DNA of 64,000 nt from a bacterium (GCA_030648955.1 JAUSHB010000006.1:11866-75865); one strand, 5' to 3'; shown: positions 4,955-52,011, numbered from the stretch's first letter. Translations and numbers: made by a program. Notes: generated by a model not told the origin, from the sequence alone.

Positions 4955-5010
4955 AATTCTTTTATCTTTTTTATAAACATGTTGAGTAGTTTATGGAATC
5001 GTTATCCTGC

Positions 5011-5478
5011 CTAATACACCGTCCCCTGTGCAGTCACCGTAATGGTAGCTGTGTCGCCTAGAGATGAAAGCCCGAGTGTCATTGCAGTGGCTGTTCCACT
5101 TATTTTTGAAAAAATAATTTCTTTACTCAAACCCTCTCCCGGATTGGTAAATATTACCCCGCGCGGTAGTGTTGTGGTTGAATGAACGGCCGTGAGCACA
5201 TCGATATAATTTGTAGGTGTTGAAAAGATTTCGTAGTAATCGTCTGCGCTATTCACTGCACGCATACCCCATTTCATGTTATTCTCACCCGCCATAGACT
5301 TTGCTCGTACATTTTTAATGTCAGACATCAATGTTTTACTAGTAGCTTGAGATTCAATAGTCGTTACCGTATTATGAAAATATCCCGCTCCTGCTGCACT
5401 CAATCCCGCAAGAATAGCAATGACAATCAAAATTTCAAGCAAACTTATGCCTCGAGAAAGATTATAGAAATTAGACAT
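5011..5478 (-). CDS. Type IV minor pilin / pseudopilin (GspH-like size)
   Basis: MSNFYNLSRG|ISLLEILIVIAILAGL. Prepilin leader followed by a conserved E5-containing hydrophobic helix. Confidence 0.7.
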   Translation of the reverse strand: MSNFYNLSRGISLLEILIVIAILAGLSAAGAGYFHNTVTTIESQATSKTLMSDIKNVRAKSMAGENNMKWGMRAVNSADDYYEIFSTPTNYIDVLTAVHSTTTLPRGVIFTNPGEGLSKEIIFSKISGTATAMTLGLSSLGDTATITVTAQGTVY

Positions 5479-46166: not shown

Positions 46167-48140
46167 ATGTATAAGGAAGCTCAAAATAACCCTCCCCATA
46201 AGGACGATAAATCCTCTGCACTTGAAGGAATCATTGGTATTACCCCTAAGGGAATTGGGTATGTAAAAATTCCCGACAGAGAAGAGGATATCGAGGTTGC
46301 TTCGCTGTTTCTCAATACCGCACTTCATCGAGATACGGTACGCGTCATTCTCCATCCGCAAACTCCCGGCGAGCGTGTTCAAGGCGAGGTGGTCGAGATA
46401 CTCACCAGAAATAAAATGGAATATGTTGGTGTTCTCGAACGCCATCAGGATTTTTATTTTCTTGTTCCACAAGATATGCGGATGTATGTCGACATCATTG
46501 TTCCCGCTTCAAAAGCGCTCGGTGCGGAACATGGGGAAAAAGTGCTTGTGGCGATTACGAGCTGGAATGATCCCAAAAAAAGCCCTGAAGGCGAAGTGAT
46601 CAAAGTTATCGGCAAACCCGGCGACAACAATGTCGAGATGGAGGCCATTGTGCTTGATACCGGTCTTCGTCCTGATTTTCCAGAAAAAGCATTAAGAGAA
46701 GCTGGAGCAATCAAAAAAAATGAGGAGACGGAGTTTAAACGCGACATTGAGTTACGACGCGATATGCGCAATGTTACCACCTTCACGATCGACCCCGTTG
46801 ACGCAAAAGACTTCGACGATGCATTGTCGTACCAGAAACTCCCTGATGGAACAATTGAGATCGGCATCCATATCGCTGATGTATCCCATTACTTGCGTCC
46901 CGACACTGACTTGGATATAGAAGCGGCGCGCAGGGGTAATTCGATTTATCTTGTCGACCGCACCATCCCCATGCTCCCTGAAGTTCTTTCAAACGACCTT
47001 TGCAGTCTCAATCCAAATGAAGACAAGCTCACCTTTGCCGCAATATTTACGTTTGGGAAAGACACGCTTGAGAAGGGCACTCCGCACATTACCAGCGAGT
47101 GGTTCGGGAAAACGATCATCAATTCAGATAAACGATTCAGTTATGAAGAGGCGCAAGGTGTACTTGATGACGGGAAGGGGATTTTTTATGACGAGCTTTT
47201 GATACTCAATAATCTCGCGAAAAAACTCCGCAAAAAACGCGAGGAGGATGGTGCGCTTTCATTCGAACACGAAGAAGTACGATTTGAACTTGATGCAACT
47301 GGCAAACCGCTTCGCGTATACAAAAAAATAATGCAGGATACCAATAAGCTCGTCGAAGAATTCATGCTTCTGGCGAATAAACAGGTAGCGCGTCGTGTTC
47401 ATGAACTCGGCAAGAAAGAAGAAAAACTTTTCGTCTATCGCGTCCACGACGAGCCGGATCAGGAAAAGATCAGTGACTTGATTGAATTCCTCAACAAGCT
47501 TGGCTATAACATTAAGATAAAAAATAAAAATGTGTCATCAAAAGATCTCAATGGGATTTTGAAAATGGCGGAAGGGCGTGCGGAAAAGGATATGATACAG
47601 ACTGCCGCGGTTCGCTCAATGGCAAAAGCGATCTACTCAACAAAAAATATCGGGCATTACGGCCTTGCATTTGAATACTACACGCACTTCACCTCCCCTA
47701 TTCGCCGTTATGCGGACGTGATGGTACATCGCTTACTTGAGAGCTATCTCGCGGGCAAGCATCCGTCGCAAGAAGAACTCCGCCGCTATCAGAGCCTTGC
47801 AAATTACACATCGCAGACAGAACAACTGGCGACGACCGCAGAACGTACATCAATCAAATACAAGCAGGTTGAATATATGACCGAGCGCGTTGGAAAAACA
47901 TTTGACGGCGTTATTTCAGGCATAACGCAATGGGGTCTTTATATCGAAGAAAAAGAAACGAAAGCGGAAGGAATGATCCGCCTGCGCGATATGACCGACG
48001 ACTTCTACGAATTTGATAAAAAACATTTCAGTATGGTGGGACAAAAAAAGAAAAAACGGTACCGCCTCGGCGATGCCGTGAAAGTAAAAGTGAAGCGCGC
48101 AAGTCTCGATGAGCGGCAGATTGATTATGTGTTTGTGTAG
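46167..48140 (+). CDS. rnr: Ribonuclease R / RNase II-family 3'-5' exoribonuclease
   Basis: RNB motif FTIDPVDAKDFDDALS. N-terminal cold-shock-like domains. C-terminal S1 domain. Confidence 0.9.
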   Translation: MYKEAQNNPPHKDDKSSALEGIIGITPKGIGYVKIPDREEDIEVASLFLNTALHRDTVRVILHPQTPGERVQGEVVEILTRNKMEYVGVLERHQDFYFLVPQDMRMYVDIIVPASKALGAEHGEKVLVAITSWNDPKKSPEGEVIKVIGKPGDNNVEMEAIVLDTGLRPDFPEKALREAGAIKKNEETEFKRDIELRRDMRNVTTFTIDPVDAKDFDDALSYQKLPDGTIEIGIHIADVSHYLRPDTDLDIEAARRGNSIYLVDRTIPMLPEVLSNDLCSLNPNEDKLTFAAIFTFGKDTLEKGTPHITSEWFGKTIINSDKRFSYEEAQGVLDDGKGIFYDELLILNNLAKKLRKKREEDGALSFEHEEVRFELDATGKPLRVYKKIMQDTNKLVEEFMLLANKQVARRVHELGKKEEKLFVYRVHDEPDQEKISDLIEFLNKLGYNIKIKNKNVSSKDLNGILKMAEGRAEKDMIQTAAVRSMAKAIYSTKNIGHYGLAFEYYTHFTSPIRRYADVMVHRLLESYLAGKHPSQEELRRYQSLANYTSQTEQLATTAERTSIKYKQVEYMTERVGKTFDGVISGITQWGLYIEEKETKAEGMIRLRDMTDDFYEFDKKHFSMVGQKKKKRYRLGDAVKVKVKRASLDERQIDYVFV

Positions 48141-48157
48141 GTAACTAACAACATTTA

Positions 48158-48209
48158 CCAAGGACTGTCCTTGGTGTTTCGGTCCTTGGTGTTTCGTCCT
48201 TGGTGTTTC
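48158..48209. repeat. Palindrome (ccaaggac/gtccttgg) followed by three tandem copies of tccttggtgtttc
   Basis: Read directly: the palindrome, then copies at 48168-48180, 48183-48195 and 48197-48209. Confidence 0.8.
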
Positions 48210-48212
48210 TGA

Positions 48213-48386
48213 GTGATCGAATCAGTTCTTGTTGGCGATATTGCTCGTCTTGATGTTAAAAAATTGAAGGGTGAAAAGAATGTGTTTCGTATTCGCATTG
48301 GCGATTTGCGTATTATTTTCACGTACAAAAAGAACTTGCCTCGTATTGTTTCCATTGAGCGCCGAAACGACACAACGTATCGTTAG
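48213..48386 (+). pseudogene. 5'-truncated RelE/ParE-family toxin gene remnant
   Basis: Translation ...NVFRIRIGDLRIIFTYKKNLPRIVSIERRNDTTYR* matches the C-terminal half of RelE/ParE toxins. Compare YRFRIGDYRVTFDVENDTAKILKVGHRKDMYR in the intact toxin at 49194-49445. No N-terminal half and no antitoxin. Confidence 0.5.
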
Positions 48387-48414
48387 CGGTAAATTACTCC
48401 CATCAACCAACTAC

Positions 48415-48448
48415 CACAGATTTCAAGCTATAGCTTGAAATCTGTGGT
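48415..48448. repeat. Perfect 34-bp palindrome
   Basis: ccacagatttcaagcta|tagcttgaaatctgtgg. Confidence 0.85.
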
Positions 48449-48471
48449 ACCCATATCCCCTATTCTTATGA

Positions 48472-48516
48472 CGCGCAAGCCTCGACGAACGGCAGATTGA
48501 TTATGTGTTTGTGTAA
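48472..48516 (+). repeat. Displaced duplicate of the rnr 3' end (original at 48096-48140)
   Basis: 41 of 45 nt identical. Encodes RASLDERQIDYVFV* exactly like the rnr C-terminus. All four differences are synonymous, including the stop codon TAG->TAA. Confidence 0.85.
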
Positions 48517-48602: not shown

Positions 48603-49049
48603 ATGCAACCCCATGCCTTGCAGTTCATTCCCCAAGAAGACCTACGTATATTTCATGAGATAGTAGGAATTGTTGGGCTACTTCCTGACATAATACTAGG
48701 TCACACTAAGACTGGTAGAGAGGTCCCTATATCTTGTCATGTGCTTACGCGAGCACTGGCATCCATTTTTGAAACACTGGAAGTTAAAGACGGTTTTATA
48801 GGATACGGGTCACACTACGAACATTCTTGGTTGCAAACAAGTAGCGGTTCAATTATTGATCCTTATCCTTTTGCTACAGTAGGGGGACCAATTATTCTCG
48901 CTGATGTTTTATTTTGGAGAAGTTTTTACGGCCCAGAAATATGCCTCATTGAACATCAACAGGAACCGTTCACCGCTTGGGTTGAAACAATAACTAATGT
49001 TGTTTATGAAATTTACTACAACCCTAAGGAAAATAAAACTGCTCACTAA
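48603..49049 (+). CDS. Hypothetical protein (148 aa) in the rnr-smc insertion zone
   Basis: Good RBS (GGAGGA 6 nt before ATG). No recognisable motifs. Flanked by the displaced rnr-end and smc-end copies. Confidence 0.5.
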   Translation: MQPHALQFIPQEDLRIFHEIVGIVGLLPDIILGHTKTGREVPISCHVLTRALASIFETLEVKDGFIGYGSHYEHSWLQTSSGSIIDPYPFATVGGPIILADVLFWRSFYGPEICLIEHQQEPFTAWVETITNVVYEIYYNPKENKTAH

Positions 49050-49089
49050 TACATTTAAAAATCACTCGAAAGAGTGGTTTTTTTATTTT

Positions 49090-49140
49090 GCAATCGCGAC
49101 GGCTTCTTCGAATTTAACCGAGAGAAGTTTTGAGACGGCG
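49090..49140 (-). repeat. Displaced duplicate of the smc 3' end (original at 49760-49810)
   Basis: 51 nt identical. Flanking codons encode ...AVSKLLSVKFEEAVAIAK* with synonymous changes (gcg->gca, aag->aaa, TAG->TAA). Confidence 0.85.
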
Positions 49141-49193
49141 CCAGTCCGCTTCTTCCCCTCAACCCTATATCCGTAAAGATTACTACGCACAAC

Positions 49194-49445
49194 CTACCTA
49201 TACATGTCCTTTCTATGCCCAACCTTGAGGATTTTGGCGGTATCATTTTCAACATCAAAGGTTACTCGGTAGTCTCCAATACGGAAACGATATTCTCCGA
49301 GCTCAAAATCGGTAAGATGCTCTGCAAAACCAAGTGGTGAAGGAGCTGACATGTAGAGCTCAAGTTTTTGCTTGATTTGCAATTGGGCTTTCCGAGGAAG
49401 TTTGGAAAATTCTTTAATGGAATTTCCCTTGAAATCGTATCTCAT
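49194..49445 (-). CDS. RelE/ParE-family type II toxin
   Basis: ...GEYRFRIGDYRVTFDVENDTAKILKVGHRKDMYR. Typical RelE/ParE C-terminal signature. 83 aa. Confidence 0.8.
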   Translation of the reverse strand: MRYDFKGNSIKEFSKLPRKAQLQIKQKLELYMSAPSPLGFAEHLTDFELGEYRFRIGDYRVTFDVENDTAKILKVGHRKDMYR

Positions 49446-49448
49446 AAT

Positions 49449-49673
49449 CTATGCAAGTCCGAGTTTCTTATATAGATATGTTGAAGAGACTGCTTTTTTA
49501 GAAGCTCGCGCGCGAGCAATATCTTGTTTATATTTCTTGGAGGTGGACATTTGATAATATTCTTCAAGCATACTGACTCGCTCACGAATGGTCTCCCACG
49601 CCGAAACAGGCAATACCACAACGGGATTCTTGCCAAGTTTAAAAATTTGGGCTTTTTTCATGAATGCATTCAT
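49449..49673 (-). CDS. Cognate antitoxin (Phd/YefM- or RelB-like), 74 aa
   Basis: Small acidic/basic protein immediately upstream of the toxin. 3-nt gap, co-directional. ...NPVVVLPVSAWETIRERVSMLEEYYQM. Confidence 0.6.
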   Translation of the reverse strand: MNAFMKKAQIFKLGKNPVVVLPVSAWETIRERVSMLEEYYQMSTSKKYKQDIARARASKKAVSSTYLYKKLGLA

Positions 49674-49752
49674 TTTTTTATGATACTCTTTTCCTCGAAT
49701 AATCGCAACATCTACCTAGTTTTACTAGGACAATATCCTAGAAAACAGTCAG

Positions 49753-52011
49753 CTACTTCGCAATCGCGACGGCTTCTTCGAATTTAACCGAGAGAAGTTT
49801 TGAGACGGCGTCGGAACCCATGGTAACACCGTAGAGAATCCCCGCGCGGGACATTGTTTCGCGGTTGTGTGTCACCACGATAAGCTGGGAATATTTTGAA
49901 AGATTTTCGAGCATATTGCCATATTTTTTTGAGTTTGCTTCATCAAGCGCCGCATCAGTTTCATCGAGAATAAGAAATGGCGGTGGATTCACCTGCGAGA
50001 TAGCAAACAAAAGCGCGATGGAGGTGAGCGCGCGCTCACCTCCCGAGAGCATATGAAGCCCTTTGATCTTCTTGTGCGGCAAACTTACATTGATATCAAT
50101 TCCTTCTTCCTCTTCAACTTCGCCCTCCTCTTCCCCGCTCTCTAAACCTTCAAGTTCGGGTGGAACTGCGCGCCGGCGTTTCTGCTCTTTTATCAACAAG
50201 AGTGTTGCCGTACCTCCACCAAACATCAGCGCGAAAAATTCTTCAAACTGCTTGTTGATCTTTTTGATCCCGCCCTGAAATTCTTCTCCGAGACGGACCG
50301 TGAGGTCTTGGATAAGCTGCGAGAGCGCTTCTGCGCTTTTTTGCAGATCTTCGATCTCTTTTGCAAGAAATTCGTCTCGCGCAATGGTTTGGTCATGCTC
50401 TTTTACCACATCCTCCCCTGTGCCGCTTCCCATATCCTCAAGCCGAATTTTTATTTTTTCAATACGCTTCCTGCGGTCTTCTTGCACGGTACGTGATTCA
50501 GAATGCGCTTGACCTCCATCAATCGCAAAATCTTTATACGCAAGCACGCCTTCACCCGAAAGGACTTTTGCTTCTTCCAGCTCCCGACGAAAACTTTCTT
50601 CCTCGCGGAGAAGATTTTCTTCCTTCACATCAACTGTGGCAAGCCTTGAAGTAAATTCGCTTTTCTTTGCGCGGATATCAAAGAGCGCCATCTCGGCATC
50701 GCGAGACGAATCTTTTTCTTTCTCTATTTCGTTTCGCGCGAATCCGTATTCTTCCGAAAGCTTTTTTTCTTCATTCACCGCCTCTTGGAGTAAATGATTG
50801 GTTTCTTCGCGGTCTTTCTTGAGTGTTTCCAGTTCGCCTTTTTCATCCTCCCCTTCTGTAATAATCCCTTGACGGCTCTGGGAAATAAACGTCGCAATAA
50901 GATCTCGAATCTTTTTGAAAATTGCTTTTGTGATAGAAAAATCTCCCGAGGTCTCCGCTTCCGCGATATGACGCTCAAGTGACCCCGTGAATTCATTTAC
51001 CAAATTTCGATCAACAGGCGCATTTTCATCGCGAGACGCGCGTTCCGCTTTCTTGCGCAAGACATCTTCCTGATATTCGATCATTCCGTCAAGACGCCCC
51101 TCTTTGCGCGTGAGATCGTCGCGCTTCCTGCGAACTTCCGCGAGTTTCTCTTCGATTGTTTTCAATTTCCGGACACTATCGCTCTCGCCTGTTTCCTTGG
51201 ATCGAAGCGACTCCTGCAAACGCGCGTGCTCATCGCCAAGCCGTTTGAGTTCTTCTTCGGGCACTCGACGCTCTTCTTGTATTGCGCTGCGCGTGCCTCC
51301 AAGATATTCCTCTTCTCGCTTGAGATATTCGTGATAGAGCTTTAAAAGCTCGTCACGAAACGCACGAGCTTGTTCTATTTTCTCAACCTGCTTTTTTAAA
51401 AATTTTATATGAGGCGCAAGCTCGCGACGAAGCGATTCTGCTTCTTTAAGATTTTCTTCCGTCTTTCCGAGTTTTTTATCACTCTCCGCGATCTTCCAAT
51501 GATAGATTTTGAGCCCAAGCGCTTCTTCGATCATCGATTTTCTGTCTCTTGAAGAAGAGTTGAGAATTCTGTCGGCCTCACCCTGTGAAATAATATGATG
51601 CCCCGATGCGCCAATATGCACCCCTGCAAGAAGCTCGATAATATCCCGCAAGCGCACTGCTGTACCGTTGATAAAATATTCGCTCGAAGAGTCGCGATTC
51701 ACTTCGCGACTGATCACCACTTCATCGTAATCGAGATTGAGTTCGCGCTTGGTATTATCAAACGCAATAGAAACTTTGGCATGATTGAGACGTGCAAGAC
51801 TTTTTGAACCATTAAAAATGAGATCTTCTCCGCGCTTGCCGCGAAGCGACTTGAGGGACTGTTCCCCCAGCACAAAACGCACCGCTTCGACAACATTTGA
51901 TTTTCCCGAGCCGTTGGGACCGACGATCGCCGATATGGGAGTATTGAAATCAAAAACACTTTTCTTTGCGAATGATTTGAATCCTCCAACCTCAAGTCGT
52001 TTAAGTTGCAT
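49753..52011 (-). CDS. smc: SMC-family chromosome-segregation ATPase, unusually short (about 750 aa), no recognisable hinge
   Basis: Probable start MQLKRLEVGGFKSFAKK...VGPNGSGKSN (Walker A). Long coiled-coil. C-terminal LSGGERALTSIALLFAI...LILDETDAALD. Conserved rnc-smc synteny. Confidence 0.8.
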   Translation of the reverse strand: MQLKRLEVGGFKSFAKKSVFDFNTPISAIVGPNGSGKSNVVEAVRFVLGEQSLKSLRGKRGEDLIFNGSKSLARLNHAKVSIAFDNTKRELNLDYDEVVISREVNRDSSSEYFINGTAVRLRDIIELLAGVHIGASGHHIISQGEADRILNSSSRDRKSMIEEALGLKIYHWKIAESDKKLGKTEENLKEAESLRRELAPHIKFLKKQVEKIEQARAFRDELLKLYHEYLKREEEYLGGTRSAIQEERRVPEEELKRLGDEHARLQESLRSKETGESDSVRKLKTIEEKLAEVRRKRDDLTRKEGRLDGMIEYQEDVLRKKAERASRDENAPVDRNLVNEFTGSLERHIAEAETSGDFSITKAIFKKIRDLIATFISQSRQGIITEGEDEKGELETLKKDREETNHLLQEAVNEEKKLSEEYGFARNEIEKEKDSSRDAEMALFDIRAKKSEFTSRLATVDVKEENLLREEESFRRELEEAKVLSGEGVLAYKDFAIDGGQAHSESRTVQEDRRKRIEKIKIRLEDMGSGTGEDVVKEHDQTIARDEFLAKEIEDLQKSAEALSQLIQDLTVRLGEEFQGGIKKINKQFEEFFALMFGGGTATLLLIKEQKRRRAVPPELEGLESGEEEGEVEEEEGIDINVSLPHKKIKGLHMLSGGERALTSIALLFAISQVNPPPFLILDETDAALDEANSKKYGNMLENLSKYSQLIVVTHNRETMSRAGILYGVTMGSDAVSKLLSVKFEEAVAIAK

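Follow-up and report, generated by a model that had tools for sequence, protein, structure and literature searches.

We analysed the 3′ end of the smc gene in a 64-kb stretch of bacterial DNA (GCA_030648955.1 JAUSHB010000006.1:11866-75865; hereafter the window, from whose first nucleotide positions are counted unless another locus is named), where a second copy of the last codons of smc lies downstream of a small toxin-antitoxin (TA) cassette. Loci and toxin homologues recovered in the analysis carry L and P numbers, respectively. Judging from its SMC protein, the organism belongs to the Paceibacteria of the Candidate Phyla Radiation (CPR) and is Yonathbacteria/Nomurabacteria-like, with the best species representative reaching only ~70% amino acid (aa) identity. 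The smc gene (49753-52011, minus strand) was identified from the list of open reading frames (ORFs) and from its PF02463 (SMC_N) domain, and its 752-aa product equals in length that of the relative L213 described below, with 94% aa identity. A perfect 51-nt core inside the working end of smc (49760-49810, minus strand) is repeated directly and exactly at 49090-49140, at a spacing of 670 nt; it is the longest repeat within the 64 kb, for a 51-mer chance expectation of ~1e-21. Homology between the copies widens to 58 nt (49753-49810, the true smc end with stop codon TAG, against 49083-49140), beyond which the flanks are unrelated. The 58-nt copies differ at three T/C positions, each a third codon position (GCA/GCG, AAA/AAG and TAA/TAG), and both translate on the minus strand as AVSKLLSVKFEEAVAIAK followed by a stop.

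Read in the direction of smc, the locus comprises the smc stop codon (TAG), palindromes, a promoter, an antitoxin gene, a toxin gene, a 53-nt spacer, the displaced end (TAA) and a terminator. Two overlapping palindromes, CCTAGttttaCTAGG and CTAGGAcaataTCCTAG (49715-49741), lie between the smc stop and the TA promoter and are operator-like in appearance. The promoter (49680-49708, minus strand) is sigma-70-like by consensus match only (TTGCGA-17-TATCAT) and sits just upstream of the antitoxin start. The putative antitoxin (74 aa, 49449-49673, minus strand) and the toxin (83 aa, 49194-49445, minus strand) are co-oriented and separated by 3 nt. The spacer (49141-49193, minus strand), which follows the toxin stop, opens with GTTG and contains a collinear segment, TCTTTACGG, in common with the longer displaced copy of L213; this hints that the spacer may be what decay has left of the upstream portion of a displaced smc fragment that was formerly longer (shuffle p ~0.01). 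The displaced 3′ end (49083-49140, minus strand), encoding AVSKLLSVKFEEAVAIAK with stop TAA and holding the second copy of the core, runs directly into a hairpin with T and A runs (49057-49082), a bidirectional terminator that abuts the displaced stop on one side and lies 8 nt after a 148-aa ORF on the other, while the working copy runs directly into the palindromes and promoter of the cassette. With its TAA and terminator, the displaced copy looks like the old end of smc, a direction of events that we infer from this arrangement. The insert is a 612-bp integrase-less type II TA cassette with its own promoter and operator-like palindromes; the TA pair constitutes its only credible ORFs, and no recombinase or transposase is encoded inside it.

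The toxin scores 30.7 bits (cutoff 23, E=4.9e-7) with PF05016 (ParE_toxin) and matches, in phmmer searches of PDB, the toxin-like structure 2khe (E=1.6e-7); weak matches above the 0.001 default were obtained with RelE3 (3bpq, E=0.02), Rv2866 (3g5o, E=0.031) and aRelE (1wmi, E=0.11). Searches with the antitoxin, whether a single sequence or a profile of 10 sequences was used, found no match in Pfam, NCBIfam, PADLOC or PDB, and its putative role follows from its being the constant upstream partner of the toxin: the same 70-82-aa ORF (mostly 74 aa) precedes the toxin in every locus where the upstream region is present and called, with 74-91% aa identity among 10 aligned ORFs drawn from all 7 genomic contexts of the family. 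Look-ups of the exact window toxin and antitoxin proteins found neither on record, nor any sibling strain. On these comparisons the pair appears to be a RelE/ParE type II system not previously on record, with an antitoxin outside described families. Codon differences between the window and L213 amount to 21 synonymous and 7 nonsynonymous in the antitoxin and to 32 and 11 in the toxin (53 versus 18 for the pair), which shows, at the level of codon substitution, that the pair is intact and under purifying selection; it is functional-looking, and the toxin is predicted to be mRNA-interferase-like. The locus is in these respects as described in an earlier sequence-only reading, which had reported a perfect 51-nt duplicate whose synonymous flanks use different codons, enclosing a complete TA pair: the codon differences are those listed above, both ORFs are intact and the toxin clears the PF05016 cutoff.

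Contig look-ups place the TA family in at least 7 genomic contexts, with the pair at 74-93% aa identity: after smc, between a major facilitator superfamily gene and RNase J, before a type II secretion system ATPase gene, between ssb and an HxlR gene, divergent from nusA, after rplE, and between genes for TfoX and S-adenosylmethionine (AdoMet) decarboxylase. Besides the window, two other genomes carry it downstream of smc. Among 222 toxin homologues, the top 74 (P0001-P0074) share at least 70% aa identity and are 81-85 aa long, and this identity of 70-93% is far above that of host proteins of the same genomes (nearest SMC ~70% aa). DNA homology among the TA copies extends only from the promoter to the toxin stop (window 49698-49193, 78-82%), and at none of the 6 contexts away from smc is the end of a neighbouring gene duplicated. 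So far as sequence comparison can show it, the family is horizontally mobile among loci. A virus collection scanned for a degenerate smc-tail pattern and for the toxin yielded no match and no phage- or plasmid-like carrier.

The check set beforehand, whether all relatives have the same arrangement, was answered in the negative: the duplication is absent from 78 of 80 species representatives. It is present in a Yonathbacteria metagenome-assembled genome (MAG; GCA_016235485.1), recovered as L213 from NCBI and as L214 from Logan. L213 is collinear with the window through nusB, rnc, smc, the same TA pair and a displaced smc end at 83-86% nt identity (81-86% in the TA pair and 86% in smc), with aa identities of 91% for the antitoxin and 87% for the toxin, and it has in common with the window the junction formed by the toxin stop, GTTG and the smc fragment. 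Because the smc-TA order is common to two genomes that have diverged by ~14% in nucleotide sequence, it is not a private recent insertion. The displaced copy of L213 is longer, at 114 nt (37 codons). Compared with the working end in the same genome, it shows 12-13 synonymous codon changes, one V-to-A replacement and the TAA/TAG stop exchange. It lies ~12-13% from the working ends of both L213 and the window, which are themselves 5.5% apart, and this equidistance fits a foreign or formerly resident allele and not a scar that has evolved neutrally since before the two genomes split.

Other relatives hold different contents at the same place. L220 (GW2011_GWC1_43_11), at 87-88% nt identity, has no TA pair at smc; its homology to the window ends at 49798, inside the repeat core, and its smc stops 16 codons early (ending in GSDAV and a stop), followed by a 96-aa orphan ORF, a different cargo, and then by a short smc-end remnant and a terminator. 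The L220 features concerned lie at 616-660, 1160-1215 and 2001-2036, and they include a decayed smc fragment, GILYGVAIGSE, 28 nt from the rnr stop. L224 and L225 also have the TA pair of the window, 35 nt beyond smc, and no displaced copy can be recognised there.

Recurrence was assessed by scanning for in-frame repetition of the final 8 residues and stop of any gene in 80 species representatives, in 120 metagenome contigs picked by the degenerate smc-tail pattern, and in the loci of the TA relatives. The scan returned 13 events, of which 8 concern smc (window, L213, L057, L083, L111, L112, L127 and L189), 3 concern rnr (window, L053 and L083) and 2 lie elsewhere; one of these last two, in L089, was rejected as a scar, being probably two tandem paralogues that share a C-terminal motif. 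In loci L001-L200, a scar marks 8 of the 262 ends of smc or rnr, compared with 1 of the 680 ends of other genes (Fisher p=2e-4). The inserts measure 0.33-1.35 kb and about half of the cargo consists of TA pairs, which outside the window family combine MazE with a ParE-like toxin, an RHH-like (ribbon-helix-helix) antitoxin with a ParE-like toxin, or a RelB-like antitoxin with ParE; the remainder includes an IS200-like Y1 transposase with hairpins resembling repetitive extragenic palindromes, Nfu_N, PaaX-like and AdoMet_dc proteins, and unknown proteins. That transposase, in L057, is the only recombinase-type gene in any of the cassettes. The smc scar of L057 (6690-7931), whose copies span 27 nt and differ at 2 synonymous positions, holds a 122-aa ORF together with the transposase (PF01797), which stands between two identical 25-nt hairpins, ctgtcaaacatccgatgtttgacag, the right one adjoining the displaced smc end.

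Repeat lengths range from 20 to 114 nt over the events (30-114 nt for smc) with no evident shared core. In 12 of the 13 events homology ends exactly at the stop codon, where conservation between lineages ends; at the other side, three TA events (window, L083 and L189) begin near the codons for SKLL and the rest begin elsewhere. Differences between copies are synonymous or exchange one stop for another in 7 of 7 cases in the window and in 8 of 8 and 3 of 3 in L083, and L053 has 6 synonymous differences and one conservative V/I replacement. Outside the 8-codon detection seed, the part unbiased by the search, 14 differences are synonymous and 1 is nonsynonymous. As a copy left non-coding since duplication in situ would gain mostly nonsynonymous changes, the copies must have diverged as working ends in different lineages. 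Moreover, since the TA pair comes without any duplication at its 6 other contexts and unrelated cargo lies within the same scar, the scar is a property of the site and not of the cassette. The events can be complex: L083 (4374-5795) presents in order an smc end, an Nfu_N-like gene, a displaced rnr end, a palindromic operator, a MazE-like antitoxin, a ParE-like toxin, a displaced smc end, a bidirectional terminator and the rnr end, an interleaved double scar beyond the reach of two simple nested insertions. This interleaving and the smc fragment beside rnr in L220 argue for several rounds of exchange.

The rnr scar of the window, to which the sequence-only reading had likened the smc one, is real and separate from it, its insert belonging to another TA family. 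The working rnr 3′ end (48096-48140, plus strand, stop TAG), supported by the ORF list, Pfam and the repeat comparison, and the displaced end (48472-48516, plus strand), which encodes RASLDERQIDYVFV with stop TAA, are 45 nt long and differ at 4 positions, 3 of them synonymous and the fourth being the TAG/TAA exchange. Within the insert (48141-48471), three tandem 15-nt repeats (48167-48210, plus strand) stand, as comparison with L220 reveals, in place of the antitoxin and the first ~21 codons of the toxin. They are followed by a 5′-truncated toxin remnant of 57 aa (48213-48386, plus strand), which has a weak PF05016 match and 50% identity to the toxin of L083, and by a perfect 19+19 nt palindrome (48412-48449), probably the terminator of this second TA operon, which lies 22 nt before the displaced rnr end. 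Beside rnr, L220 holds an intact 82-aa PhdYefM antitoxin and a 78-aa Gp49/HigB-like toxin, homologous to the remnant, followed by the same 38-nt palindrome (1386-1423, 36 of 38 nt identical); a displaced rnr end is absent there. The intact second TA pair and the palindrome in L220 show the window insert to be a 5′-deleted remnant of this different family (PhdYefM with a Gp49/HigB-like toxin). Between the two displaced gene ends, the resident content of the island is an orphan ORF of 148 aa (48603-49049, plus strand, from the ORF list), which matches nothing in Pfam or NCBIfam and resembles none of the island genes in L083 and L220. Wherever smc and rnr both occur in L001-L200, which is in 124 loci, they are convergent, with a gap of 2 nt to 5.9 kb and a cluster near 1.9 kb; convergent conserved ends with so variable a gap indicate that they flank a clade-wide hypervariable island.

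We propose that these structures arise through gene-end displacement by host recombination, anchored in the conserved 3′ ends that flank the variable smc-rnr island, a reading to which we assign a probability of about 0.5. Incoming DNA from a related Paceibacteria lineage, bearing an smc 3′ end and a cassette, would pair with the resident chromosome through the highly conserved last 50-115 nt of smc. The new end (TAG) would stay fused to smc and the resident end (TAA), together with its terminator, would be moved 670 nt downstream, so that the terminator would now end the TA transcript. Integration could take place by a Campbell-type single crossover of a circularised fragment, by a double crossover whose arms would be the body of smc and the displaced copy pairing with the overlapping resident end, or by homology-facilitated illegitimate recombination, in each case with host enzymes acting and not the cassette. 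Patescibacteria commonly hold genes for homologous recombination and competence (PMC12455944), and a RecA gene is seen in the relative L215. The displaced copy would serve as a second arm, able to re-create the structure in naive relatives, and recombination between the repeats could remove the cassette, leaving smc restored. Addiction to the TA pair plausibly makes loss by this route harder, and such a penalty may account for the high share of TA pairs, about half, among the cargo. Across the clade, small cassettes, often TA pairs, would be gained, exchanged and degraded within the smc-rnr island.

The evidence points to a site-driven process of host recombination common to many cargoes, in an arrangement older than this genome, rather than to a self-targeting TA element. 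It is here that we depart from the sequence-only reading, which had envisaged a second, independent insertion of a small TA-carrying element that targets and regenerates the 3′ end of a housekeeping gene. The regenerated end, the displaced older end and the mobility of the TA pair are retained. The self-targeting element finds no support, given that the cassette consists of the TA pair alone, that it lacks repeats at its 6 other loci and that unrelated cargoes give the same scar at smc and rnr. A bolder form of our proposal would see these as integrase-free "natural knock-in" cassettes of Paceibacteria, self-propagating with no mobility gene by means of a portable smc or rnr 3′-end homology arm and with a TA pair that punishes loss; we put this forward tentatively, as the less probable outcome.

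By analogy, the closest described process appears to be C-terminal displacement in the effector-immunity loci of Rhs, contact-dependent inhibition (CDI, CdiA) and type VI secretion systems (T6SS). In the treatment of these loci in PMC5361080, the conserved part of the gene anchors incoming DNA and old 3′ ends pile up downstream as orphans, the route proposed being homology-facilitated illegitimate recombination (Jackson 2009, Kirchberger 2017, via PMC5361080). The likeness lies in a new 3′ end arriving with one or more small downstream genes, a shifted old end, no dedicated recombinase, and complex orders built by repetition. Unlike those systems, the new and old ends encode the same peptide here and nothing is diversified; the targets are the housekeeping genes smc and rnr, an immunity gene is replaced as cargo by a TA pair or some other small gene, and the displaced pieces are 20-114 nt long. 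Campbell-type integration and the homology-facilitated illegitimate recombination of natural transformation are laboratory observations made with anchors of at least 150 nt (de Vries & Wackernagel 2002; Prudhomme 2002; Meier & Wackernagel 2003, cited in PMC5361080). The topology of the product (gene, homology, insert, homology) and the reliance on host RecA and competence proposed here are alike, whereas our anchors measure 20-114 nt and the process has been reconstructed from natural end products.

Two further classes of element bear comparison. Genomic islands, integrative conjugative elements and prophages integrate by tyrosine recombinases into the 3′ ends of tRNA and protein genes, cis-mobilizable elements (CIMEs) being their integrase-less derivatives and TA pairs a common cargo. 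Direct repeats of the target 3′ end, an ORF regenerated by element sequence and divergence outside an identical core are common to these and to the scars, which differ in having no integrase, an insert of 0.6 kb, no evident core across events and the same cargo elsewhere with no att-like repeats. Chromosomal type II RelE/ParE loci are horizontally mobile addiction cassettes, including the TA cassettes of the Vibrio superintegron. The present pair resembles them as a two-gene operon with the antitoxin first and a RelE-fold toxin, patchily present at many loci and conserved above host genes, and departs from them in lacking attC or IntI, in its antitoxin of no described family and in the gene-end duplication at smc. 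A literature search for TA cassettes with gene-end duplications found no direct precedent, the nearest analogue being T6SS/Rhs displacement.

Several points weigh against gene-end displacement by host recombination. The loci recovered include no strain-level empty site, circular junction or donor, and the pathway is read from end products. The breakpoints of three independent TA cassettes (window, L083 and L189) and of the L220 truncation lie no more than ~10 nt from the SKLL codons, a clustering that could reflect a site-specific enzyme rather than conservation boundaries, and the perfect 51-nt core could stem from intragenomic gene conversion rather than from recent transfer. The parallel divergence of the TA pair and smc between the window and L213 suggests vertical co-inheritance, which is awkward with young-looking displaced copies unless later exchange refreshes them. 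Displacement leaves the origin of the very first duplication unexplained, reported homology-facilitated illegitimate recombination is rare, and anchors of 50 nt are short for RecA. Finally, the antitoxin has no recognisable family, and the activity of the pair is predicted.

The clustering at SKLL leads to the alternative that survives best, that of a site-specific element mobilised in trans, in the manner of a CIME or integron cassette, with the smc end acting as an attP-like site for a tyrosine or serine recombinase encoded elsewhere or on a helper. The anatomy is reminiscent of attL and attR at the extreme 3′ end of a conserved gene whose ORF is regenerated; the junction held in common by the window and L213 is what an element-internal fragment would produce; the left boundaries of the three independent TA cassettes cluster at the same codons; and smc and rnr ends are enriched targets. 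Nevertheless, no recombinase is encoded in the insert or in the ~8 kb on either side (41-58 kb), where the neighbours are housekeeping genes (trmD, a pilin-like gene, clpP, rnr, smc, rnc, nusB-nudix and a glycosyltransferase). The repeats vary from 20 to 114 nt with neither an evident common core nor an inverted-repeat core, the same TA pair occurs with no duplicated site at 6 other loci and at smc in L224, and no viral or element contig holds an isolated smc tail or this toxin. We consider a recombinase acting in trans unlikely on this balance.

Better placed to account for the parallel divergence, yet improbable overall, is a single ancient insertion in which the target was duplicated at birth, by a staggered break or replication slippage, and then descended vertically with later gene conversion or allelic replacement. 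The arrangement is common to L213, where the TA pair has diverged to much the same degree as smc; the displaced copy of the window looks decayed upstream and is perfect over its distal 51 nt, as a conversion tract would leave it; and the smc-TA order of L224, lacking a recognisable copy, fits full decay. What this history does not accommodate is the 114-nt copy of L213, with 12-13 synonymous changes to 1 nonsynonymous where a neutral copy should carry more than 10 nonsynonymous, and its equidistance (12-13%) from two working ends that are 5.5% apart; the recurrence of scars with unrelated cargo, and the other cargo of L220 at the same breakpoint, are likewise unexplained.

The protein-level conservation of displaced copies could also be taken to mean that they are kept for a function, as a 3′ untranslated or antisense element coupling TA and smc expression or as a translated C-terminal peptide. 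In the window, the displaced copy ends in the reading frame of the toxin, 111 nt beyond the toxin stop (TAG, 49194-49196) and with no stop between (49083-49196), so that read-through would extend the toxin by 36 residues. L213 does not keep this frame relation, however, the length of the copy and the orientation of the cargo vary, and L224 has no copy at all; a function at the nucleotide level would moreover hold synonymous sites, which are exactly those that differ. Retention for function is accordingly very improbable. An assembly artefact joining two strain variants at a shared k-mer, a concern given that 51 nt is near common assembler k-mer sizes and that the window is probably a MAG contig, is scarcely credible when the same order appears in the independent assemblies L213 and L214, whose repeats, at only ~87% identity, cannot mislead an assembler, and when some 10 further scars occur in other datasets.

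Established classes of mobile element were also considered and rejected. An integron gene cassette would not fit an insert bounded by no attC-like inverted repeat, with no integrase nearby and with repeats that are the ends of coding genes. For a transposon or insertion sequence, the window insert offers neither terminal inverted repeats nor a transposase, and target-site duplication by a transposase is rejected because of the variable lengths of the repeats and of copies that differ only synonymously. An integrative element exploiting Xer (IMEX) at dif is at odds with the constant sign of GC skew at 48-50 kb and with repeats that are gene ends and not a 28-bp dif-like site.

Chromosomal TA loci are patchy and clearly horizontally mobile, mostly with no associated transposase or integrase, and their movement is poorly understood. 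The present locus and its relatives provide a tractable footprint of cassette entry at two convergent essential gene ends, with a coding-like displaced end left behind. If displacement through conserved gene ends is correct, streamlined CPR genomes can gain accessory genes with no mobile-element enzymes, the smc-rnr interval is a clade-wide integration hot spot useful in comparative genomics, and its layout is a design supplied by nature for inserting markers into these uncultivated bacteria. The bolder knock-in form, if true, would in addition explain in concrete terms how chromosomal TA loci achieve the mobility long noted in them. If displacement through homology arms is wrong, the alternative is a trans-acting recombinase that targets gene ends, which would also be worth finding.

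Some minor observations complete the description of the smc end and its cassette. In L213 (4380-4412), L220 (2041-2066, minus strand) and L083 (~4985-5025, minus strand), a real or displaced stop is directly followed by four heptads in tandem, each of the form RNARCGY (for example GAGCGTGTAACGTGAAGCGTAGAACGCAAG). The corresponding pattern ARCGT-NN-ARCGY-NN-ARCGY, which in L083 contains mismatches, is absent from the window and was dropped as an explanation here. The closest toxin homologue, P0001 (93% aa), lies on an ENA contig of 671 nt, about the 670 nt that an excised circle would be expected to measure, a correspondence that may be coincidence. Identity is raised at the smc gene end: the last 148 nt (49753-49900) are 91% identical to L083 (4227-4374) against 72% for the whole gene, and against L213 the last 150 nt reach 93% compared with 81-89% elsewhere. 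This rise may reflect either strong constraint or recombination at the gene end.

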